Source: a virus (Duplodnaviria; Caudoviricetes). Taken from it: 64,000 bases of DNA. The stretch's first letter is position 1; each line of letters begins with the position of its first letter. Both the position numbers and the translations under genes were made by a program. Positions 17,160-57,240 of the stretch are shown in pieces. The stretch spans positions 1-64,000 of IMG/VR virus record IMGVR_UViG_3300013936_000017. One strand, 5' to 3'. The notes beneath the pieces are model-generated. The model was not told the origin of the DNA and made no database searches. It was given only the letters and a program-made list of their open reading frames with translations.

Positions 17160-19968
17160 TGGCATTAGATAAATTTATATATATTCACTCAATTGGCACA
17201 GATGCGTTATATACAGACGATGAAAAATATCGACATGACCGGCTGATTAAACTATATAAGCTGCGAAATTCTATCAAGGAATCCGGGCAAGATAAAGAAA
17301 TTCGTGATTGGCGATTAAAAAGCATAAACCGCGTACTAAAAAAAGAAAAATCTATCCTCTCTGAAATGCTTGATAAATCGTTGGAACATGACTATGCTCG
17401 AATATTGCGTTCAGATGCAATTCGAGACAAAGACGTTATCAATTTGTTTTGTTCTGAACTTACGCGAGCATTAAAAATTGAGCCGTTTACGCTTACTGAC
17501 GAGCTTATCATGGTTAACGTGTTTTTCTTTCAGGTGTTTAACAGTATTGTGCGCCATGGATTTATTTACAATGGCGAGAAGTACGTATTTTACACAGCCT
17601 CGGCTGGGCAGATAAGAACTAAACGAATGATTGCTATCAAGGAATCGTCTTACGAAAAAATCAAAAAACGCTTGATGTGTGGATTGACTGTCGAAAAGAT
17701 AAATGAGCTTGGTGGAATGAATCAGAACAAGTATTGCAGCTATCTGGCACTCACAAATTCGGCTACAGATGTTTGGGAAGGATTTGATATTCGCAAGTCT
17801 ATTGTTGTCGATGACTTTGAGACGATATTCAAGTCTGATGTTGATTATATTGACTATCAGACATATGACATTGAGCGGCGAAATATGGATGTTACGATTC
17901 CTTGTACTGATGGCTGGGGTATGGTCGATGGCGAGACGACTCGAATGTGTCGATTGCCATGGATAAAGGGACTTTTGGTAAATTTTAGATTCAAGGATTG
18001 GCTCAGAGAAAATTGTACGTCAGACCAATGGATTATTTCTGACATCTGGGGCGATGAGCATGATGTTGTGAATGATGACGTCAAATATATTTTCACCAAG
18101 AGTCAGATGAAATTGAGTAAATTTTATGATTCATGGGTTGAATATTGTGACGCGTTTGAAAAATACGGATGTCAAGCGTGTTATTGCAATATGGAAGAAG
18201 AAAATCTTCGTCCGTCCAGAATAAATTATCAGATGCTTCAGCAGCTTGTCAACCCGACTGATTATGAGCTTGATAGGATTGTAACTCGAACGAATCGAGA
18301 GATTTCGGCAATCGGCGTTGATTATCGAACGACTATGCGATTGCTCGGGGCGGTTGAAGAAAATGAGAATAAGAGCTTATTGCAAGAGGCATTGTTAATA
18401 TATCCTGAATTATTCAGAGACGAATATTTCAAAGATATATTAAAACAGACAAAAAAGAGTTTGGTTAAACAGGCGCGAGCTGGTCGGTTGAGAATCAATG
18501 GAAAATATTTATTCGTTTCGCCGAATCCCATTACGTTTTGTAGGTGGTTATTCAAGGATGAGAAATTGCCTGAAGAAGATTTTGGCCGAGATGAAATATA
18601 TACAAATCAATTCTTCGATGGTGATGAATTAGCTGTGCTTCGTTCGCCGTCCTTAGGCAAAGAATGGGCGATTCGCAAGAATAAGCGAAGTGAATATTTA
18701 GACAAGTGGCTTGGAGATTCCAAGTGTATATATACGAGTAGCTACGATACAATCAGTAAAATGCTGGCGTTCGACTGCGACGGGGACCGCTTACTCGTAG
18801 TAAAAGACCGAACGCTTATCAATGTTGCAAAACGTACAATGCAAGGTGTCGTTCCGCTTTACTACGAGATGAAAAAAGCAAAGGGTGGATTGCTTAATTC
18901 TGATTCGATGTACAAGAGTATGTCATTGGCATATACTTGTGGGAATATTGGGCCAATTAGCAATTTAATTTCTGTTGTTCATAATAACAACGAGGAAGAT
19001 AGAGAAGAAGCCGACAAGGTTATCAAGTGGCTTACAATGGAAACAAATTTTACGATTAACATTAGTCGCCTTGAGCAGTAATGTTCAAGTGAAAATCTGG
19101 TGAACCTGTAAATACAGGGTGTGCAGAAATGTGCTAACGGTGAAAATCTAAAGGCTGATGTCTATGACAATACCGTGCCAAGCCTTTAATGAGGAAGGTG
19201 TAACGACTATCCGAAAGGAGTAGCTTGTAGGTGAAATTCCTACTTGCGAAGTGCCAGACATCCATATTATGGATGAAGATATAGTCTATTCCCCTACTGA
19301 AATATCGGGAAACCGAGGGTATATAAAGAGATGGAGCTAAGACGCTATTTTTTTTAACGCGCCCAAAGTCAGTTGATAAAATTGTAAAAAAACATACAAA
19401 GGGCAAATTGCCAAACTTTTTCCAATATGCCAAAGATAAGACCGAATATCAGGTCGAACCAATAAATAATTCGACTATGAATCGAATTTCGGCTAAGATT
19501 GAGTCGTCGCGCCTGAAATTTTCAAAGACGATTGGCTCTTTGGATTATTTGATGCTTATGAATCATAATCGAGATTGCATGACAATGGTCGCGTCAGATG
19601 ATATTGTGATTCAGAGATATGATTATTGGTTGCGGCATCAATATTTGTTTAATCTTGAAGCGGATAAAGGTGTCAAGCAAGAAGATATGTATGTGTATCG
19701 CAAGATTCGAGAGGCGATTATTGACGAGACTGGCCTTGATGCTGAAGATGTGACAAATCGGCTTGTAAAATTTTTATATGTTAATCGAAAGTCGAGCCAA
19801 AAGAAAATGTTTTGGGCTTGTTTTGGAGAGGAAATTGTAAATAATCTCCAAAACAATACGAAGCAACTTGGAAATATTTGTCCGATTTGTGGCCGGAGAT
19901 ATATCCCTAAGAGGGCAAACCAAGCTGTATGTTCGGCAGAATGTGCCAGTTTGGCAAAACATATATAA
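17159..19968 (+). CDS. yonO: YonO-like single-subunit RNA polymerase; two exons 17159-19056 and 19329-19968, about 845 aa
   Basis: SAGQIR, TDGWG, R.PWIKG, LRSP, FDCDGD catalytic motif; splicing restores NFTIDGAKT; C-terminal CxxC..CxxxC. Confidence 0.88.
19057..19328 (+). mobile_element. ORF-less group I intron (272 nt) in the RNA polymerase gene
   Basis: P1 with U-G pair (CGAT/GTCG), P7 aacGACTAt...gaagataTAGTCt, terminal G, in-frame exon ligation. Confidence 0.9.
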
Positions 19969-34457: not shown

Positions 34458-36974
34458 ATGGCTGAAAAATATATTTATACTGCTGGCCCTGCGCGTGCTC
34501 TATTCTTCTACGGACAAACTCTAATCGGCGTGGTAACTTGGCCATCCTTATAATGTGAGTTGTAAGGACTTTGGGTTAAATGCTTTGAATCCCTAAAGCT
34601 CATACACCTAAACAGTAGCTAGAAATGGCAAGCTGAATGGTTGCGAAAGCAGAAAAAAGTTATGAGATATTCATATGGTCAAATCCTAAGTGAATGTAAA
34701 TGGGTCTTTAGCAGGGAAATCCCTAAGTATGATATTGACATATCATTGTTTATATGTTATAATGTCATATATGGGAAACCCTCAACGACTATCCCTTTGC
34801 GAGGGAGTAGAGGTAAGTATCTCGAAAAATCCACTTCTTATTTCATATAAAAATGGTGTTATAAAATGTTGTTAGATAAGTATGTTGAAGTATCTGTAAC
34901 TGCTAGAAATTTTAATCATTATAAAAATCTCGGATATAATATTCCTATGCAGTATGACGAAAAAACAAAATCGTATAAGATGATTGTTGGGTCGAAAATT
35001 TTAGTAAAATTTGAAGATATTCCAAAAAATTCTCACAAAGAGATAAAATATCAATGTGATGCTTGTGGCGGGATATTTGAAACTAAGGTTGCCGATTGGA
35101 ACAAACGCAAAATTTCTGATGATGTAACGTATTGTAAAAATTGTGCAATTAAATTGTTATTACCTGAACGTCTTCTAGAAAAATATGGCGTCCGCAATGT
35201 CACTAAACTTCCATTTGTAATTGAGAAACAAAAGAAAACTAATCTCGATAAATATGGCGTCGAGTGGGCAGTTGCATCGGATGTTGTTCAAGAAAAACGA
35301 AAAAGTCTTTTTATGAAAAATACGGTGTTGATAATCCGATGAAAAATGCAGACGTCCAACAAAAGGCGAGGAATACAAATATAGAAAGATATGGCGGAGA
35401 AAGCCCGATGTGTTCTGAACAAGTAAGAGAAAAATCTAGAAATGCTTGTATGGAAAAATACGGAGTTCCAGTTTCTTCTCAATCCAAGGAAGTTCAGGTG
35501 AAAGCTAGAAAAACATTGAACAAAAATGGGACGACTCCGAGTTCAAAGACGGAATTGAAATTATATTCAATTCTGTGCGATATGTATGGAAAAGATAATT
35601 GCGTTCATAATTTCTCGGAAGAAAATCTTTCTCTTGATTGTCTCGTGGTTCTTGGCGATGTTAAAATAGATATTGAATATGATGGAATATATTGGCACAA
35701 AGAAAGAAAACAAAAAGACGCTGCTAGGAATGCAGTATTGATGAATTTAGGGTATAGAATCATTAGAATTAATGGCAACAATCAAGATATTCTTCCAACA
35801 GAACAACAAATTCAAGGTGCAGTTGATTATCTAATAAATGAAAATCACCATTTAACTTATATTGATATGAATAAATAAGAAGAACATATAGTCTTATCTT
35901 ATGCGAAAGCATAAGCAGCTTATTAAGCGGTGCAAGATTAACGACCTTGCATGAAAATTTTATGGCAAGACACTTTCGGACACCACGTTCAATATGGATT
36001 TGTCTAGTGAGGACGTTCGCGGTGGCCCGGGCAATCTACTCTATGGGCGTTATTTCCATGATTCCAGTATGAATATTGACATAACAGATGTCATGTTCAA
36101 TATTAATTATGTTGCCGCTTCTCTTGGTGTTAATGTCGAGCGGGGTGGCCTGTCTCTTTACGAGTCTGCAAAGGCTGGTGAAGAGATCAAAACAGATGGC
36201 CAGATTACACTAGCGAATCAAGCCGTCGCATTTGAGGGTTCTATTGTTGGTTGGTATAAAAAGCCAGCCGATGCGAACTGGTCTATTGGCACAATTTCTG
36301 GTGGCGTTATGACGATTCCGGGCGCAAAGACCGGTGAATCTTATTGCGTTAAGTATTTCTATCAAAATCCAGACGCCAAGCAGATTACTATTAAGGCGCA
36401 GTATGTTCCAAAGGTTCTTCACCTTGTTCTACTGAACGACCTTTATTCTGGCGACGTTGCAAATGTTGCATCTTCTAGCTCAAAGTATGGCCGTCTAATT
36501 ACGGACGTACCACAATATCAATTATCTGGCACACAAGATATTGCATGGTCTGCAACTTCTACAGCTACCATTAGTCTTAGCGGCTCCGCTCTTGCCTATG
36601 AGAGTGGCGAGTCCTGCGAGGAAGACCCAGTCTATGGCACTATGACGCAGGAAATTTTCGGCGCTAAGTGGCAGGACGATGTTGTTGCACTCGCCGTCGA
36701 GAATGGTAATGTTGAGATTAATCAGAGCGAGCAGGAGCAGATTATTGTTCGTGCTGTCTTTGGTGGCAATGTTGCGTCTAAGGTCTACGATAATAGCAAC
36801 TTTACGTTTGCTGTTGAGCCAAAGCCAGCTGCTACGGCTACTGGCGTCACTATTGGCGCTGATGGCATCGTCAAGGCTGGGCAAGTCGAGGGTGAAGCGC
36901 TAATTTCTGTTAATCTGACTGGCTATACAGCTTCTGTTGAGCCAGCATATGTCCGCGTTACTGTCGGGGGCTAA
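34458..36974 (+). CDS. Major tail (tube) protein; exons 34458-34534 and about 35966-36974, about 361 aa
   Basis: GGAGG-ATG, MAEKYIYTAG...LIGV joined to KTLSDTTF...EDVRGG.GN; codon bias; terminator at 36982-37024. Confidence 0.8.
34535..35965 (+). mobile_element. Group I intron in the tail tube gene, carrying a homing endonuclease gene
   Basis: P1 TGGT/GCCA, tcaacGACTAtccc...cataTAGTCt; removing 1431 nt restores frame; junction uncertain by 1-2 nt. Confidence 0.85.
34866..35878 (+). pseudogene. Intron-encoded endonuclease (Zn finger, KYGV repeats, DUF559/Vsr-like domain) split by a -1 frameshift near 35300
   Basis: Two overlapping ORFs share the KYGV repeat series; IEYDGIYWH...D..RN..L...GY.IIRI. 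Confidence 0.8.
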
Positions 36975-38209: not shown

Positions 38210-38755
38210 ATGGCCGAAAAAATCACGAATGACGAGCAGTTATTAAAAGCACTCCAACCGGCGTTTCAAAAGGCTTGTCATTATGTGGCCGAAAAGATTT
38301 ACGAAACAAACAGAGAAATAGTCCAAAAGGTAGTGTATCAAGCTGGCAACCCTGTAGAATATGAACGCACAGGTGAATTTTTAGACGCATGGGCTGTTAC
38401 CAAGGAAAAATTTAATAAGAGCAAATACGCTTATTCTAAATTCTACTACAGACCGTCCGCTATGACGACTGGTTCCCCAAATTATGGCGACCCAGACTAT
38501 GCACAGCACGTAGGCGTTTGGGGCGATTACTATGGTAAAGCGTCTAAGGAATATTTAGCTGAAATTATTTACGAGGGTATGGCTGGCTCCATATTTGGAA
38601 GTGGCTATTGGACTAAAAAAAGAGATGCTTGGGATGCTTTGATTAAAGAGATTGATAAATGGGCGATTCGTAGCTGGTTTGAAGAAGCTATGGAAGCTCA
38701 GGGCGTTAAATTGCATCGTCATAGAACTACAAGCATTAAATTCATTGAGGATTAA
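38210..38755 (+). CDS. Hypothetical virion protein
   Basis: VY....P.EYERTG.F motif typical of neck-type proteins. Confidence 0.55.
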   Translation: MAEKITNDEQLLKALQPAFQKACHYVAEKIYETNREIVQKVVYQAGNPVEYERTGEFLDAWAVTKEKFNKSKYAYSKFYYRPSAMTTGSPNYGDPDYAQHVGVWGDYYGKASKEYLAEIIYEGMAGSIFGSGYWTKKRDAWDALIKEIDKWAIRSWFEEAMEAQGVKLHRHRTTSIKFIED

Positions 38756-38759
38756 CAAT

Positions 38760-39281
38760 ATGATATATTGTGGGATTGACGCAAGTACGTCTTGTACGGG
38801 GTGGTCGATATTCGACGAAGATTCTCTTATTGCACATGGAGCAATTCATCCTAAAGAATCTGCTGAATGGCGAGATAGAGTCATGCAGGAATGCATGGAA
38901 TTATCCAGAATCTTTAAGGAATATCGACCACAAATCCTATTTGCAGAAGATGTGCCGAACAAGCCCGGACATCTTACCATGCAAAAATTAGGAGTTATGC
39001 AAGGCGTGTTACTATCTTTGTGCGCCGCATATCATATTAAGCCATATTTTTTATTGCCGTCTAATTGGCGACGAGATATGGAATTATTTGATGGTACGCG
39101 TGGCGGTATGCACAGAGACGTATTGAAAGAAAAAGCCATACTGATGGCGAATGATATTTTTGGATTGAATCTGTTATGGAATGGAGCAAAAAGCAAGAAA
39201 ACCGAGGATGATGAGGCCGAGGCGATTCTTATTGCTTATTCGCAGATTCGCAAATCACACAAAAAGGAGTGTGATGGATAA
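38760..39281 (+). CDS. ruvC: RuvC-like Holliday junction resolvase
   Basis: CGIDASTSCTGWSIF, AED, PSNWR, DDEAEAILIA. Confidence 0.85.
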   Translation: MIYCGIDASTSCTGWSIFDEDSLIAHGAIHPKESAEWRDRVMQECMELSRIFKEYRPQILFAEDVPNKPGHLTMQKLGVMQGVLLSLCAAYHIKPYFLLPSNWRRDMELFDGTRGGMHRDVLKEKAILMANDIFGLNLLWNGAKSKKTEDDEAEAILIAYSQIRKSHKKECDG

Positions 39282-42200
39282 TGGCTAGTAGTGGTGGATA
39301 TAGTATTTATGTAGATGCAGAACTTAACTTAGATAAGTTAAAGAAGGATTTACAGACAAAAGGATTAAAACTGCCTCTTACTGTCGATAATTCCGGTGCG
39401 AAGAAGGCATCTAAAACATTAGAAGATATATCCAATAAAATGGAGGATGCAAATAGCCAAGTTTCACAATTTGGACTAACATGGCAAGAGGCATCGTCTA
39501 TTATGAGTAAGTGCGTCGACATTATTGAGAAAATGACCGACCAAGTATTTGAACTTGATACGTCATTAACAGAGTTAATATAAGCTCGCTTTCATTGTAA
39601 AATGAATGAATAATAATCTATTGAATTGCTGGAAACCCCTTAGAGCTATACAAACTACAACATAAGTATGAAATAAAACTAGGTGTGAGAGTTTGAAAAT
39701 TGTATAGATTGGGCAATCAGCAGCCAAGCCTTGAATAGAGGAAGGTTCAACGACTATCCCGCAAGGGAGTACACTGCAAGCGATTGGCGGTGGAAGTGGT
39801 AGACATCCAAGATTTGGATGAAGATATAGTCTGAACTCATATAGAAATATATGGAAATGTGTGGGAGTAGCGTCCTTTTAATAATGGGATTAAATTAGTT
39901 AGAATTCCTTATTGGGATTATAAAAATATTGAAAATATATTATCATCATTATTACACTAAAACATACTTGTTAAGAAGGTCTCCGACTTGTCGGGAAGCG
40001 CCTTAGATTTATATGTCGATAAACTTTCTGATATGGGAAAAGAAGTTGCTAGAACCGGTAAACCAAATCGGTCTGAGCCGGTATGTTGTGATGGTAAAGC
40101 AGCATAGAGAACGTCCCCTAAACCCTTGAAATCCTAAAGCCTTATCAGCTACAACATAAGGATGAGATATGCTTACGTGTGAATGCAAGAAATTATAAAA
40201 ATGATAAGGATTGCATATGGCGGAAACGCCTAAGTGCTGTAACAATGGAAGATTGGGCGCGAAGTCTTGATGAGAGATGTGTCAACAGAATATACGGGGT
40301 GGCCCTCCAACAATATAGGGTAAAGAATTATTCGGGCGGTATTTGAAAAAATATCGGATTATTGTATTGACAAATTACGAGATGTGTGCTATGGTTGTCT
40401 CATCAAATGAATGGAGGCAATAAATATGGGCAAGATGATGTTGATATTCGTAGCGGCTCTTATCTCTATTGATTATTTGAATAGTGGAATTCTAGGCACT
40501 ATTTTTTATATTTGGGGGCTTATTGAAGCATATAAAGTGCTTATTAGGCCGTTAATTCAGATTGCAAAAAAGCCGAAAAATAGTGATATTGATAATTATT
40601 TATATCATTGGAATAAGGCACAAAATGACATGGAAAAAGAATATGGTACTATTGATTGGCAGAATAGCCACAAAAAATAATTTGTTGATATAATAATAAT
40701 TTATGGCCGTCAGAGATGGTTGATGCGGCGACTTAACGGAATAGGTCGATTATGTAGAAATACATATAGAGAACGGGGTGAATTGCCGGAAACTCCTTAG
40801 AGCCTTTAACACCAAAGTGTAACAGAGTAAGGGATTGGACAATCGGCAGCCGAGCCAATATTGATTTATTGGAAGGTTCAACGACTAGGATTGAAATAAT
40901 ATCCGTAGACTTCAAGTGAAGTCGAAGTGCTCCGCAACCGCACAGGTTGAAGATATAGTCTAAACTTATATGAAAGTATAAGAGGTATTTATGATTAGGA
41001 AGAAAAAAGAAGCAGAAGTGCGCCAATGGTGTTCCGAAAATGGATTTGAACCATTGTCAATAAAAGGAGACTATTATAAAAACGGAAAATCCGTTATAAA
41101 GATTTCATTGAAATGCGAAAAATGTGGGACTAGATACGATAGAGATTGGAATAACTTAAAAAAGCAAAAATTCCCACATTGTTGTACTTCTTGCGCACAC
41201 ACAGAGATTCAAAATGAACGCAGGCTGAACGCGCAAAAGGTAGTTGATTTGTTTGCGAAGTACGGTTATAAAGTATTGACTCCAACAGACAGAATCAAGC
41301 CTGTAGGAAAGAGAAATCTTTATAATTTTGCAAAAGTAGATATTGAAGATAGGTTTGGTGTTGTGAGAAACATATGCTGGAATACTTTTCAGTCAAAATT
41401 GCAATATTACATTGACTTAAACGAAGGTGGTCATTGTTCTGCTGAGCTGACGAAGCCTAGTTCTTTAGAGCAAAAAGTAATTGATTTTTTGGACGAGAAT
41501 GAGATTCCATATAAGCGAGAATTTAAGTTTTCCGGATGTAGGAATAAATGTATGTTGCGCTTTGACTTTTGTTTATTTTATGATACAGAGAACAGAATTT
41601 TAATTGAGGTTGATGGTGAGCGGCACTATAAATCTTTATTTAAGGATTTGCAACATAATGATGAAATAAAAAATTATTATTGCACAACTAATAATATTCC
41701 ATTGCTTAGAATCCCATATTGGGAATTTAAGACAGACGATTACAAAAAGTCTATTCAAAATTTTATAAATACCAATAAAGTGTAACGAGCTTTATAAATA
41801 ATATTGATTTTCCGCAAAAATAGTTTCAACGATGAAGATTCTGCTAATTTAGCAAAAATTGCGGTTATGTTTACCAATGTAGCCGATGAAGAAATATCAG
41901 CTGCTGATAGTGCAGGCTTCATCATTTCTCAGATGAAAGCATTTGGTATTGAAGCCGAAAATGCAATACATATAATCGACTCTATCAATGCCGTTTCAAA
42001 CAACTATGCTGTTTCATCTGGGGATTTAGCTAATAGCATTGGCAATATGTCGGCGGCTTTGGCTGTTGGCAACAATTCATTTGAAGAATCTCTTGCGCTC
42101 CTCGCGAGTGGGACTGAGGTGACTCGAAACGCAAACAAAGTCTCTCGTGGACTTGTGAGTGTGCAGAGTCGCTTAAACCAAATTGTCGATGAAGGTTCCG

Positions 42201-45200
42201 ATGTTGGTCAAAAATTGACTGATTGGTATAAAGAGCATGATATTGCCATCAAAGACCAAGATGGGCAATTAAGAAGTCTATATGATGTTCTTAAAGATGT
42301 TGCTGGAATTTGGCCGACATTGACTAAGAACGAGCAAGCGTATTATCTTAATCAGCAAGCGGGTAGATTTATGCCCCAAATCAAGGCGTATATGCGGGGA
42401 ATTGCTTAGAGCCTTAGTTACTTGGAAGGGTAATGACCAACCAATAGTAAAAACACTAAGGATTGTTTAATCCGCAGGGAATTGTTCTTAATAGAGCTTG
42501 CCCTCAACGACTATCCCAAAAACGTGGCGAGGTGAGACGCTCGCAATAGGAGTACGGCCCAAGTGGGTGGGTGAAAATCCCTTAAATGGAAGTGCCTTGA
42601 CATTGAGAAATCAATGGAGATATAGTCTGAACATTATGGGAAATCCATAAGAAAGAAAGTTTTATTAAATTAAAAAATGGAATAATCGAGAGATATTGAT
42701 AGAGGTGGACGGGCAACAGCATTTTTATGTTGGTGGATGGACAGATGTGGATAAACTGCAATACAATCAAAAAACAGACAAGATAAAAGATGACTATTGT
42801 AAACTAAATTGGTATGAACTTGTACGCATTCCACATTGGATATATCGACACACGACACATAAAGATATATTAAATAAAACTTTCTTTGGCTAGAGTAACG
42901 ACCTAGCTTAACAAACTGTCGAATCAATCTCAGAATCTAGCGGCCATTTTATCGAATTTCAAGACGGCAACGTATGCGACAACGACTGCGCTTGAATCTG
43001 CTGGTTCTGCTGAACAAGAGAATCAACGTTATCTTGAATCGTTAAATGCTTCAGTTCAACAGTTGAAAGCGACATTCCAAGATTTTGCTAATAATGTAAT
43101 TAACAAAGATTTGGTACAAAATGCGCTGAAATTCCTAAATGCTATTCTAGAAGGATTAAGTAGTGGTGTTTGGACAACAATAACGCAGATTGGGTTACTT
43201 GCTGGCGTTTTAACGGGCGTGATTAGTATTGGTGGAACTGTTGGAAGTAAACTAATCGGGATGATTGGCGGTATGGGGGCATTTGGCACCGCTACTGCCG
43301 CCGCAACTGTGACAACTACAGGATTCGCCGCTTCATTAAAAGCCGCTGCGGCCGCTGCGGGGCCGTATGCTGCTGTTGCCGCTATTGTTGCAACAGTTGG
43401 TTATAAAGTCGTAAAATGGCTATTAAATCAGCGAGAAACATTAGAATCTGTCACTGAAGAGTTAGATAAAAATAATAGTGAGTTAGAAGCTAATAAAAAT
43501 AGGCTTCATGAACTATATCAAACTTCGTGGTATGATAGAACACCTGAGATTTCAGAGGAAATTGCAGCTCTCGAAGAAGAAAATAAAGAGTTGCAAGACC
43601 AAATAGACAAATTACAAGAACGTAAAAAAATTCTTGAGGGAGAAAAAGAACCCGGGAAGTCGCCTAAATATATTAGCGGTGGAACTGTAACAGAAACAAC
43701 TTCTGGTGGCTTTGCGCACACATATACTCTTCAATCGTGGCAAGAATATCTTGAGGGGATCAAAGATGCTCCGGGATATGCGGGAAAAACGCTTCGAGAG
43801 ATAGAGGATATGCTTGTAGATTCTGGTTCTACTATTATCTACGAAGCAGATAACACTATTACTCAACTTCAAGAAAAGCTATCTAGAGGAGTTAGACCAT
43901 CAAGTGATGAACTTGTAATGTACAATAATTTAATGTCTGAACTTGGTTCTTTTAGAGACGAAGATGGGATTATTCATTTTACGGAATTAAATTATTCTGC
44001 TGTACAATATGTTAGTTCATTGCTTGATTTGCAAGATGCGTATGAAGCAACAGCCGCAAAAGCCCGTACATATGCAGAGCAAGTAGCTTACACTAAGTCT
44101 AAAGATGCTCAAAATCAAGCGATTCTTAATGATGCCGTAGCTCAAGGTTTGACAACGCAATCAGAATATAACAACATGATTAAGGTTTATACTGATTATG
44201 GAATGTCATATTCCGATGCGTTGGCTGCTGTTGCAAAGCGATTTAAGGATGCAATTAGTGCTCTTGGGAATCTAAATAATGTTAGCGACCTAGCAAATGA
44301 AACCATTCAAGACTTAATCAAAGAGCTAACTAATGCTCAGACCGCCTATAATTTTTTCACAGAAGATGGCAATCTAAGCATTGATACTCTAGTAGATATT
44401 CGTGATGCATTTTCCGATGTTTCTGGTATTGACACATATATTGACCGCCTAGGCGCAGCTGGCAATACCGCTGATGATGTCCGCGAGATTCTTGGCCAAT
44501 TAGTAGAAGCTAAAGTTAAAGCGACATTCTCGACTGAGCAATTAGCCGGTTCTGAAGCAACCGTAGTAGCCAAGATGCTTGATGAGGCCGGTGTCGCCAA
44601 TTCGCTTGAAGTTGCTACGCGCCTAATTACTGAGGCGAAGTATGATTTAGCAAGTCAGAATATTGCGACAGATGGTACGATTGAGGATGCAATTAAACTC
44701 CTTAGTGCAGAAAAAAATGTATCTGAAGATGTTAGAATTGCATTTGTTAATCTTGTAGCTCAAGAGAAAATTTTCAACAATTCTACACTTGATGTTTCTC
44801 AAAAGCGGCAAGCGCTTATGGAACTTTATACAGCTGCCAATATGGTAAATGGTGCGTTGTCGTTTAATGCGGCATATGGCACGTTTGCTAATAATTATAT
44901 TGCTGCTGTTGGGGATGCCACAGAAGAAGAAATTCTTAATGCATTTAATCAATATTCTATTGATAAATACACACAACAGATTATAGATGCAACCAAAGAT
45001 GTCACATTTAAAGATAAAGATAAGAGTGGTACATCTGGTGGTGGCGGCTCGTCTAAATCTACAGAGGACACCAAGCTAACGGCGCTCAAAGAATCTGTTG
45101 AACTTCGCAAGTCTGAGCTTGACCTTATGGACGCTCAAGGCGCATCTGATACATCTCGGATTGAGAAAATCCGTGAAATTATTAAAGCTCTACAGAACCA

Positions 45201-46437
45201 GATTGATTATATGAAGAAATCTGGTGCAAGTCAAGCCGATATTAACGCGCTTATCAAAGAGCAGCTCAGTTATGAAGATAAAATCAAGGATATTTATAAT
45301 GAAATAATTGAGGCTCAAAAGGAAGCGTTGGAGACGCGGCGCGATAATCTCAAGTCTGCGTTTAGCACTATTACTGATATGGCGCAAGACGAGCTTGATA
45401 AAATCGAAGAGCTTGAAGATGAAATCAATAAGAAATATGATGATAAACTAGACGCTCTTGAAGATGCGAATGATGCACTTGAAGACCAGATTCAGCTTGA
45501 AGAAAAATTAGAAGCATTGGCCAAGGCTAAGACCACTAAAAAAATGGTTTATAGCAATGGCCAATTTGTCTATATGGATGACATTGACTCGATTTCTGCG
45601 GCTCAAAGTGAACTTGATACACTAAATCGTGAGCGCGAGCAAGAGCAACAAAAAGCAGAGATTGAGGCTCAACGCAAGCAAGAGCTTATTGATAATCGCA
45701 TAGAAGAGCGCAAAAAAGAATGGCAAGATTATATTGATACATGGGGTTCTATTGTCGATAATTACGAGAAGCAGCAAGATAAGTTGCTTGCATCACAGAT
45801 TTTCGGTATTAACCTAGAAGAACAAAATTGGCAGAAACGAATTGACAACGCCAAAAAGTTTGCAGACGAATATGCTAACATCATGAGTCAGATTAGCATG
45901 ATTGAAAACATTCAATCTGCGGCGTCTGCTAGTGGTGGCTTGACTGTTGACCCAAGCATTGATTATTCGGCCAAGATGCTACAAGCAAAGAGCGAGGATG
46001 AATTCTTGTATTGGTCTGCGTATCGTGATGCGAAGATTCAGCAAACAGGTTCGGAGTCTAAGATTACTAGCGGCAAAATTCGCAGTAATGAGCAATTGTA
46101 TAATGATTGGAAGAAAGCTCAAGGCTACGCCGTTGGCACATATTCTTCCAAGTCTGGTTTGGCTATGCTTGGAGAAAATGGCCCAGAGCTTGGCGTCCTC
46201 AAGGGCGGCACTGGCATTCTTCCTGCCGACATTACCAAAAATCTATGGGCGTGGGGAAGTACGACGCCAGCCCAGATGATGTACGCACTAGATTCTGTGT
46301 CTGGGCAAAATTCTGGCGGTGTAAACATGAACAATGTTGTGCTTGAATTCCCGAATGTTCGGGATGGTAACGACGCAAAAGATTTTGTAACTAATGTGGT
46401 CAATCTTGCTTATCAAAAGGCATATAAGAGGGCATAA
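39281..46437 (+). CDS. Tail tape measure protein; five exons 39281-39575, 39971-40059, 40710-40733, 41807-42364, 42919-46437; about 1494 aa
   Basis: Splicing rebuilds LDTSLTEFKKVSDL...VARTGSEMVDAATIFRKNSF...QQAGSNQ; NAVSNNYAVSS, LRSLYDVL and YAVGT...GENGPEL motifs. Confidence 0.88.
39576..39970 (+). mobile_element. Group I intron TMP-I1 (395 nt) with a 26-codon endonuclease remnant at 39880-39960
   Basis: P1 GAGT/GCTC, aattgctgg/aatcagcag, GACTA/TAGTC, terminal G; remnant NNGIKLVRIPYWDYKNIENIL. Confidence 0.9.
40367..40395 (+). promoter_or_regulatory. Intron-internal sigma-A promoter
   Basis: TTGACA-17-TATGGT with TGn extension. Confidence 0.7.
40426..40680 (+). CDS. 84-aa two-TM membrane protein inside intron TMP-I2
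   Basis: GGAGG RBS; MGKMMLIFVAALISIDYL and GILGTIFYIWGLIEAY hydrophobic segments; charged tail. Confidence 0.75.
   Translation: MGKMMLIFVAALISIDYLNSGILGTIFYIWGLIEAYKVLIRPLIQIAKKPKNSDIDNYLYHWNKAQNDMEKEYGTIDWQNSHKK
40734..41806 (+). mobile_element. Group I intron TMP-I3 with intact endonuclease gene
   Basis: P1 CGACT/GGTCG, aattgccgg/aatcggcag, GACTA/TAGTC, terminal G. Confidence 0.9.
40991..41785 (+). CDS. Intron-encoded Vsr/DUF559-like homing endonuclease with Zn finger
   Basis: CEKC..CTSC, S.LE, LRFDF, LIEVDGERHY, D..KN.YC....IPLLRIPYW. Confidence 0.85.
   Translation: MIRKKKEAEVRQWCSENGFEPLSIKGDYYKNGKSVIKISLKCEKCGTRYDRDWNNLKKQKFPHCCTSCAHTEIQNERRLNAQKVVDLFAKYGYKVLTPTDRIKPVGKRNLYNFAKVDIEDRFGVVRNICWNTFQSKLQYYIDLNEGGHCSAELTKPSSLEQKVIDFLDENEIPYKREFKFSGCRNKCMLRFDFCLFYDTENRILIEVDGERHYKSLFKDLQHNDEIKNYYCTTNNIPLLRIPYWEFKTDDYKKSIQNFINTNKV
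42365..42918 (+). mobile_element. Group I intron TMP-I4 with truncated endonuclease (about 42690-42893)
   Basis: P1 GGGT/GCCC, tgcgg/ccgca, GACTA/TAGTC, terminal G; only IEVDGQQHF...LVRIPHW remains. Confidence 0.88.
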
Positions 46438-56886: not shown

Positions 56887-57240
56887 ATGGATATTCTAAT
56901 CAATCTAGAAAAAGTAGGAATTGGAGCTGCGCTATTTCTTGGCGCTTATATTTCTAATATCCTATTCGGCATTTGGAAGAATGTAAAAATTTCTGGATAT
57001 GCGTTTAATTGGCGACTTATCATTGAGTCTGCATTAAAATATATTATCCTTGGCGTTGGAATTGCGATGCTGTCCGTTGTGATTAGTGCCGTCCCGCAAT
57101 ATGCCACATATGTCGGCATTGAGATTGGGCAAGATACGATCGAGTTGATTGACAGTATTGTGATTATTGGCGCTTTTCTTACTGCTACTCTAAGATATGC
57201 TGTAGATTCCATTAGCAAGCTAAAAGATATTCTTAGCTAA
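56887..57240 (+). CDS. Holin-like multi-TM protein
   Basis: Three hydrophobic segments in 117 aa. Confidence 0.6.
   Translation: MDILINLEKVGIGAALFLGAYISNILFGIWKNVKISGYAFNWRLIIESALKYIILGVGIAMLSVVISAVPQYATYVGIEIGQDTIELIDSIVIIGAFLTATLRYAVDSISKLKDILS

Follow-up and report, generated by a model that had tools for sequence, protein, structure and literature searches.

A phage tape-measure gene predicted to carry four group I introns, with exons of 89 and 24 nucleotides

The first 64 kb (hereafter the window) of the virus record IMGVR_UViG_3300013936_000017, a metagenome-derived sequence of 97,963 bp rated complete by CheckV, contain a tape-measure gene whose coding sequence is spread over five exons. 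It is highly probable that this is one gene of an SPbeta-like phage of about 98 kb from gut anaerobes, and that four self-splicing group I introns leave its transcript to give a ruler protein of 1494 amino acid residues. This reading is carried by the exon map, by alleles without introns, by the features of the ribozymes and by the recurrence of the identical gene in assemblies from other samples.

Exon 1 (39281–39575, 295 nt; + strand, like all parts of the gene) starts with an ATG that overlaps the stop codon of a RuvC-like gene upstream, encodes residues 1–98 plus one nucleotide and has a weak match to Pfam TMP_N. Exon 2 (39971–40059, 89 nt) aligns without gaps to intronless homologues, and exon 3 (40710–40733, 24 nt) encodes SEMVDAAT and nothing else, as a preliminary description of this DNA had stated. 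The PhageMin_Tail core of the tape measure lies in exon 4 (41807–42364, 558 nt, 186 aa), which matches Pfam PF10145 with 78.3 bits (cut-off 33.2) and the tape-measure family PHROG 4211 (E = 1e-28). Exon 5 (42919–46437, 3519 nt) supplies 1172 residues and the stop codon; it includes a TTG-initiated open reading frame (ORF) that gene callers place at 43063 and also matches PHROG 4211 (E = 8e-19). Joined in this order, the exons sum to 4485 nt and translate into 1494 residues with a terminal stop only, which confirms to the base the uninterrupted frame described earlier. Since exons 1 and 2 total 384 nt, the borders of exons 3 and 4 fall in phase 0; both exons are multiples of three, and the earlier arithmetic by which they could be skipped in frame is correct.

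The junctions had been called conserved, and all four are indeed gap-free in a MAFFT alignment with the uninterrupted tape measures of the Enterocloster phages PMBT24 (1508 aa) and CB473P3 (1510 aa), whose genes contain none of the four introns. Around the junctions, the spliced protein and the uninterrupted homologues align as LDTSLTEFKKVSDL with LDASVTEYRKVSEL, VARTGSEMVDAATIFRK with VARTADEMVEAATEFKK and YYLNQQAGSNQSQNLAAILSNF with YYASLIGGKTQVDVVTAILKNF; stretches of the spliced protein that span junctions include ...TEFKK... and ...ARTGSEMVDAATIFRK.... The gene order in PMBT24 is RuvC-like endonuclease, uninterrupted tape measure (annotated as such, 4527 nt) and baseplate hub. The window agrees in that its RuvC-like gene (38652–39281) directly precedes the split gene. 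The tape-measure identity proposed before is hence backed by the PF10145 core, the PHROG families, the synteny with PMBT24 and the length of the product (1494 aa versus 1500–1510 aa in relatives). The nearest cultured relatives of the region are the Enterocloster bolteae phages PMBT24 and CB473P1-3, with about 40% identity in the exon 4 protein, and the tail module of close metagenomic relatives encodes SPbeta-type YomU, YomW, YomX and YomN domains. The host is probably an Enterocloster/Lachnospiraceae species.

Alleles for comparison came from the metagenomic contigs L054 (94,987 bp) and L056 (100,301 bp), both of related phages. Their DNA is 85–97% identical to the window in exons 1 and 2 (97% for exon 1 of L054) and 89–91% identical over intron 2. 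In both, the DNA corresponding to window positions 38602–39576 joins straight to 39971–40732, with exons 1 and 2 continuous, and the match restarts at 41810, four bases on in their DNA. Gene calling returns exons 1 and 2 as one ORF of 143 aa and exons 3, 4 and 5 as one ORF of 1370–1372 aa; excision of intron 2 alone yields tape measures of 1502 and 1500 aa. Because L054 and L056 lack exactly introns 1, 3 and 4, these three are precise insertions and intron 2 is shared. Missing as they are in the closest relatives, the three introns are either recent gains in this phage or losses in the relatives. Along the coding sequence of the spliced gene between exon 3 and early exon 5 (nt ~360–2000), the identity to L054 and L056 drops from 92–97% to about 50% from the intron 3 site onwards and later stands at 85–90%. 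Co-conversion during homing would be compatible with this drop but was not adopted as its cause; it may be ordinary tape-measure mosaicism, because further tracts of low identity sit far from any intron.

The window stems from a metagenome and related introns occur in many co-occurring phages, so introns of different strains might have been stitched together during assembly, with no single genome holding all four. This is exceedingly unlikely. An independent ENA assembly (ERZ808292, a 97,808-bp contig) contains all 7157 nt of the gene at 100% identity, and the covered parts of the gene are 100% identical in Logan contigs of the runs SRR29834450, SRR1747018 and SRR29834472; an identical gene in assemblies from four other samples therefore argues against an artefact. 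Exons 2 and 3 are also short enough for single reads to bridge adjacent introns. Exon 4 is only about 50–75% identical to intron-poor relatives and thus forms a strain-specific link between introns 3 and 4, and two further relatives, L007 and L017, independently possess four tape-measure introns. Taken as a whole, the split gene goes well past anything that chance would produce. That it recurs unchanged from assembly to assembly fits best with a phage in circulation that depends on a functional tape measure.

Affiliation with group I was assessed with the Rfam covariance model RF00028 at its curated cut-off of 50 bits. All four 5' exons end in U (U39575, U40059, U40733 and U42364), all introns end in G (G39970, G40709, G41806 and G42918), and a P1 helix with a U.G wobble at the cut was read from the sequence in each case. 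The earlier claim of four group I introns stands directly for introns 1 and 3, which pass RF00028; introns 2 and 4 miss the Rfam cut-off, and their assignment derives from comparison with homologous copies. The Rfam consensus structure accommodates introns 1, 3 and 4, which share core motifs and, like IA introns, contain a long insertion between P7 and P3' that intron 2 does not have. Intron 1 (39576–39970, 395 nt) is IA2-like, with a core at about 39576–39854 (RF00028, 95 bits at 39572–39854) and the P1 GAGU/GCUC. Intron 3 (40734–41806, 1073 nt), also IA2-like, has its core at about 40734–40982 (76.8 bits at 40724–40982). The last five nucleotides of exon 3, CGACU, pair with the guide GGUCG; in the homologous intron of relative L004 the pairing is CAGCU/GGCUG, and the two guides differ at just those two positions at which the exons do. 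Intron 4 (42365–42918, 554 nt) is a divergent IA2-like intron with a core at about 42365–42651. It has CUUAGAGCC, UCAACGACUAUC, GAGAUAUAGUCUGAAC and a terminal hairpin in common with introns 1 and 3, and where its P6 strands have diverged from theirs, both sides have changed. Its P1 is GGGU/GCCC, and a homologous intron at the same site in L046 has GGGU/GCUC. Two unrelated introns occupy the intron 4 site in L007 and L050, and there P1 covaries with the exons (CGGGU/GCCCG versus CUGGU/GCCAG).

In introns 1, 3 and 4 the Rfam match stops well short of the 3' splice site, and the interval holds a homing-endonuclease gene or its remnant. The gene in intron 3 (40991–41785) is an intact ORF of 264 aa with its own ribosome-binding site, AGAGG. 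Its product matches the homing or intron-encoded nuclease families PHROG 559, 9084 and 7140 (E values from 7e-28 to 2e-13), reaches 22.7 bits for Pfam DUF2726, just under the cut-off of 24.7, and is encoded on ten contigs; a PDB sequence search with it returned nothing meaningful. The remnant in intron 4 (42669–42893) is a C-terminal fragment of 74 codons with 44% identity to the intron 3 endonuclease (E = 1e-9) and a match to PHROG 559 (E = 6e-11). In intron 1, 29 codons (39871–39960) match the C-terminus of the intron 3 protein (E = 2e-5). Full-length relatives of 380 and 391 aa are encoded in tape-measure introns of L007. Together with the intron 3 protein they display Cys-pair repeats and, C-terminal to these, a nuclease-like module of the form ...FDF...IEVDGxxH..., with weak matches to DUF2726 and DUF559. 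In domain pattern and PHROG families they resemble the EDxHD/Vsr-like homing endonucleases with CapR-like DNA-binding repeats reported from phage introns (PMC12350094). From these motifs and the weak profile matches, the endonuclease family of introns 1, 3 and 4 is probably Vsr/EDxHD-like. The introns would be ordinary bacterial or phage-type self-splicing group I introns with homing-endonuclease genes or remnants of them. The term "eukaryote-like multi-intron processing", used in the preliminary description, is a misnomer. A megablast search against known phages returned short matches to intron cores only, for example an unannotated stretch about 8.6 kb into the records of the Enterocloster phages CB457P2 and CB473P1-3 with 86% identity over 143 nt to the intron 1 core; cultured Enterocloster phages thus also harbour related introns, located in a different gene.

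Intron 2 (40060–40709, 650 nt) appears to contain a different ribozyme at about 40060–40365. All eight relatives retrieved by way of exon 5 have it at exactly the same codon (...RTG | SEMV...), and so do all 42 viral contigs, from several metagenomes, in which its first 22 bases occur. As its position is constant in each member of the clade that was examined, vertical inheritance is indicated. Within the guide (40072–40082), P1 is formed by ACCGGU/GCCGGU with U40059.G40077 at the cut and is invariant in nine sequences; directly 5' of this strand, UCUGA (40072–40076) pairs as P10 with the first five nucleotides of exon 3, UCAGA. An alignment of nine copies shows compensatory pairs in each of P2, P3, P7 and P9, the last with a GAAA loop, and conservation without compensatory change in P4 and P8. 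Also recognizable are a hairpin with the classical UAUGG/CCUAAG tetraloop-receptor motif and a P7 of the form C-A(bulge)-G-A-A-U-A / U-A-U-U-C-G-G, with the bulge next to a G-C pair as in known guanosine-binding sites; P7.1 and P7.2 were not found in the alignment. RNAalifold assigned a false partner to the P3 strand and is unable to draw the P3/P7 pseudoknot, so its fold was replaced by a hand-built structure. In this structure 94.9% of the cells are paired, versus 29–45% when the 3' partner is slid, and it has 23 compensatory pairs versus 0–3 in the slid controls. Compensatory change in the helices indicates selection for folding. The copies in L015, L034 and L042 read ACCGGC|AAACC, with the U.G wobble at the cut replaced by a C-G pair.

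Several observations weigh against the reading of the gene as spliced from four group I introns. Intron 2 has no RF00028 match in a cmscan of 40045–40725 even at E ≤ 10 (the matches to mir-184 and IS009 at that threshold were dismissed as noise), and intron 4 stays below the cut-off with 26.5 bits (E = 0.0014, 42343–42651). P1 comprises only 4 bp in introns 1 and 4. For intron 2, P4 contains a C/U mismatch in this copy, P5 could not be assigned, and the base before the splice site is C instead of U in 3 of the 42 copies of other phages. No RNA run was found among the sequencing runs that hold the phage, and splicing is predicted for all four introns. Apparent joints between 39759 and 42543 in short Logan contigs from three DNA or unknown runs were rejected as splicing products and traced to cross-matches of homologous intron cores from other phages.

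These points bear on an explanation in which the gene is unspliced or partly spliced, either encoding separate polypeptides (from the exon 1 ORF, the exon 4 ORF and the ORF at 43063) or decaying in a defective phage. It would agree with the output of gene callers, which break the tape measure into ORFs of 100, 201 and 1124 aa, with the failure of introns 2 and 4 to reach Rfam recognition, and with a case for splicing built from DNA. Nevertheless, we regard it as very improbable. Neither exon 2 nor exon 3 has a start codon or ribosome-binding site of its own, yet both are conserved as protein. For the 29 codons that precede intron 2 (35 variants), diversity is 15.2 at third codon positions versus 8.4 and 5.9 at the other two, and for the eight codons that follow it (22 variants) 3.1 versus 1.1 and 0.65. 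In addition, the five exons are free of stops and collinear with intronless homologues, the ribozyme helices show compensatory change, the identical sequence recurs in several samples, and the exon 5 ORF by itself lacks the PhageMin_Tail domain. Past the 5' splice sites of introns 1 to 4, the first in-frame stop follows after 2, 16, 0 and 15 codons, respectively; such early stops may serve to keep ribosomes off the ribozyme cores, as knowledge of the phage T4 introns suggests. A terminator scan found no terminator-like site on the + strand inside the gene.

For the spliced gene, the following course is proposed. A late transcript would carry all five exons. Each intron would fold alone, its guide pairing with the end of the upstream exon and leaving a U.G wobble at the cut. 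An external guanosine would then make the first cut, and the terminal G of the intron would be used in the second, which ligates the exons; both the removal of all four introns and the order of these events are predictions. The ligated mRNA would be translated into the single ruler protein. In introns 1, 3 and 4 the core occupies the 5' part and the Vsr/EDxHD-like endonuclease gene the 3' tail; these introns would mark successive stages of the homing cycle, intron 3 retaining the whole gene, intron 4 a truncated one and intron 1 hardly any of it. Intron 2 would be a vertically inherited ribozyme of a different kind that is free of an endonuclease and bears instead a small membrane-protein gene with a promoter-like site.

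With phase-0 borders on both sides, exon 3 (8 aa) or exon 4 (186 aa) might be left out of part of the transcripts by programmed alternative splicing, giving shorter in-frame isoforms with altered tail length or function. Alternative splicing has been reported for one gene of the Bastillevirinae (PMC11878797), and introns 3 and 4 are related ribozymes. Such skipping is nonetheless very unlikely here. The guide of intron 2 matches the start of exon 3 (UCAGA) and not that of exon 4 (AUUUU), each of introns 2 and 3 has a guide that pairs with the exon following it, and these two introns are unrelated ribozymes. Exon 4 is the conserved PhageMin_Tail core and exon 3 is conserved in all relatives; in close relatives, exons 3 and 4 are fused to their neighbours and skipping is impossible. 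As a rule, a tape measure accounts for about 0.15 nm of tail per residue. Loss of exon 3 would remove 8 residues only, or about 1 nm of tail. The earlier suggestion of isoforms affecting tail length is therefore unsupported, as exon 4 is the most conserved domain and exon 3 is conserved clade-wide.

Beyond its ribozyme, intron 2 contains a TTGACA-17-TATGGT site with an upstream TG (40367–40395), which was found in a promoter scan. In this AT-rich region 40 promoter-like matches were found versus 27 expected, so a single match means little. Both hexamers hold their position in all nine aligned copies of the intron, while their flanks diverge. A GGAGG at 40413–40417 precedes an ORF of 84 aa (40426–40680) with two hydrophobic (transmembrane, TM) segments and a charged tail, of which the genome holds one copy only. 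In other copies of intron 2, between one and three small ORFs of this type lie in tandem, and each has its TM segment or segments at the N-terminus. The C-terminal motifs of this cargo include KYDNDWGYIR and RINEWGLDDDWRWGKL, and EKEYGTIDW in the window. A profile built from 13 cargo ORFs retrieved 122 clusters, all unannotated, devoid of Pfam domains and mostly on phage-sized contigs. The intron 2 copies in L022, L027, L035, L037, L038 and L051 (799–1066 nt) hold two or three tandem ORFs of the cargo family, and this arrangement suggests duplication and diversification inside the intron.

A function of the cargo ORF as holin was considered and is not supported. The ORF is holin-like in size, TM segments and charged tail, and its matches amount to PHROG 2508 (E = 0.007) with no Pfam family. 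An endolysin-like Amidase_3 gene lies 38 kb away among replication genes (record 77974–79458, − strand), with no adjoining small membrane ORF, and neither this genome nor the flanking regions sampled from relatives contained a detectable homologue of the annotated holin of PMBT24. In the late module (window 56887–57240), an ORF of 117 aa has three or four hydrophobic segments and affiliates with no Pfam or PHROG family. A literature search for phage group I introns with membrane-protein genes found nothing relevant. A tentative interpretation, which we consider possible though rather doubtful, is that the conserved N-terminal domain of the tape measure in this SPbeta-like clade is a long-lived landing pad for introns and that intron 2, which either lost its homing endonuclease or was always free of one, has become a domesticated carrier of a fast-diversifying cassette of one to three membrane-protein genes behind a promoter-like site, possibly concerned with lysis timing or the exclusion of other phages. 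If so, the cargo could not be lost without a precise deletion of the intron, because intron and cargo lie inside an essential late gene.

The split gene of the window is not isolated within its clade. A rough map of exon chains in 24 relatives placed one to four interruptions within the N-terminal 420 residues of the tape measure, at sites after residues ~99, 128, 136, 199, 215, 232, 241–248 and 309–322. Four interruptions occur in L017 (at 99, 128, 199 and 241) and in L007, where two Rfam-positive introns enclose a micro-exon of about 36–40 nt. Several members of the clade, the window among them, thus have four introns in this gene, and the hot spot is the conserved PhageMin_Tail region. An exon of 24 nt likewise separates the intron 2 copy of L004 from its homologue of intron 3.

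Further interruptions were noted elsewhere in the genome. A gene for a YomU_Tube-like tail tube (window 34458–36974) is split, with residues 1–25 at 34458–34532 and residues 26–361 from 35964; it is contiguous in L054. The insert of about 1431 nt (about 34535–35965, ± 2 nt) carries a frameshifted pair of endonuclease-like ORFs, and its RF00028 matches (16.5 and 18.4 bits) are weak and split because the ORF sits within the core. An nrdD-like gene (anaerobic ribonucleotide reductase; record 69284–72569, − strand) seems to be split around a weak RF00028 match at 70281–70541. Endonuclease-like ORFs (70417–70995 and 71949–72569) and an nrdG-like activase gene (68766–69290) lie in this region, all identities being read from motifs alone. 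Another RF00028 match, above the cut-off with 53.1 bits, is located at window 19047–19309. In total, the 98-kb genome contains at least seven intervening sequences.

The product of a tape-measure gene must be made whole for tail assembly, and this gene has four introns and includes exons of 89 and 24 nt. For annotation, the consequence is that gene callers turn a tape measure into three or four "hypothetical proteins". At issue is also how much of the intron content of phages is missed, since two of the four tape-measure introns and one tail-tube intron fall below the Rfam cut-off. The clade offers a natural system for the folding and splicing of neighbouring ribozymes across a common 24-nt exon, and one in which homing, endonuclease decay and intron fixation can be followed side by side.

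The layout of introns 1–4, with the core in the 5' part and an ORF in the 3' tail, resembles that of the nrdD (sunY) intron of phage T4, where the ORF lies past the core and the 3' splice site is far from it; the introns of T4 occur singly per gene. The closest counterparts are the group I introns TMP-IVS1, IVS2 and IVS3 in tape-measure genes of Bacillus cereus-group prophages (Tourasse and Kolsto 2008, PMC2504315). These belong to types IA1 and IA2, use three sites with at most two introns per gene, and some have no full endonuclease gene (PMC2504315). Shared with the present case are the gene class, the IA type, the use of several alternative sites, the incomplete or missing endonuclease genes in some introns, the mosaic presence and absence among related phages, and guides fitted to each site. 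In contrast, four introns occupy one gene here, the clade as a whole uses at least seven sites, an exon of 24 nt is present, and one intron type is not recognized by Rfam and contains an ORF for a non-nuclease protein. For phage Twort, the accounts that cite the original work (Landthaler and Shub 1999, cited in PMC3073962 and PMC11878797) describe a gene that is interrupted by three group I introns and undergoes exon skipping. According to these accounts, Twort likewise has several group I introns in one protein gene and many introns per genome; there, however, the three introns are similar to each other and skipping was observed experimentally, whereas the four considered here are of two unrelated ribozyme types and known from sequence. 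In the Bastillevirinae, two or three group I introns were found with RF00028 in DNA polymerase and terminase genes and validated in splicing assays (PMC11878797). Multi-intron genes, detection by RF00028 and homing-endonuclease cargo are common to both cases; the genes concerned are those of replication and packaging with a maximum of three introns there, and the tape measure with four here. A literature search, which was not exhaustive, turned up no phage gene with as many as four introns. Group I introns in structural genes of phages are already published, the highest numbers found being three in any phage gene and two in a tape-measure gene. The four tape-measure introns extend a known habit of phages beyond the literature cases found, and intron 2, with its cargo and its clade-fixed site, is the more unusual element.

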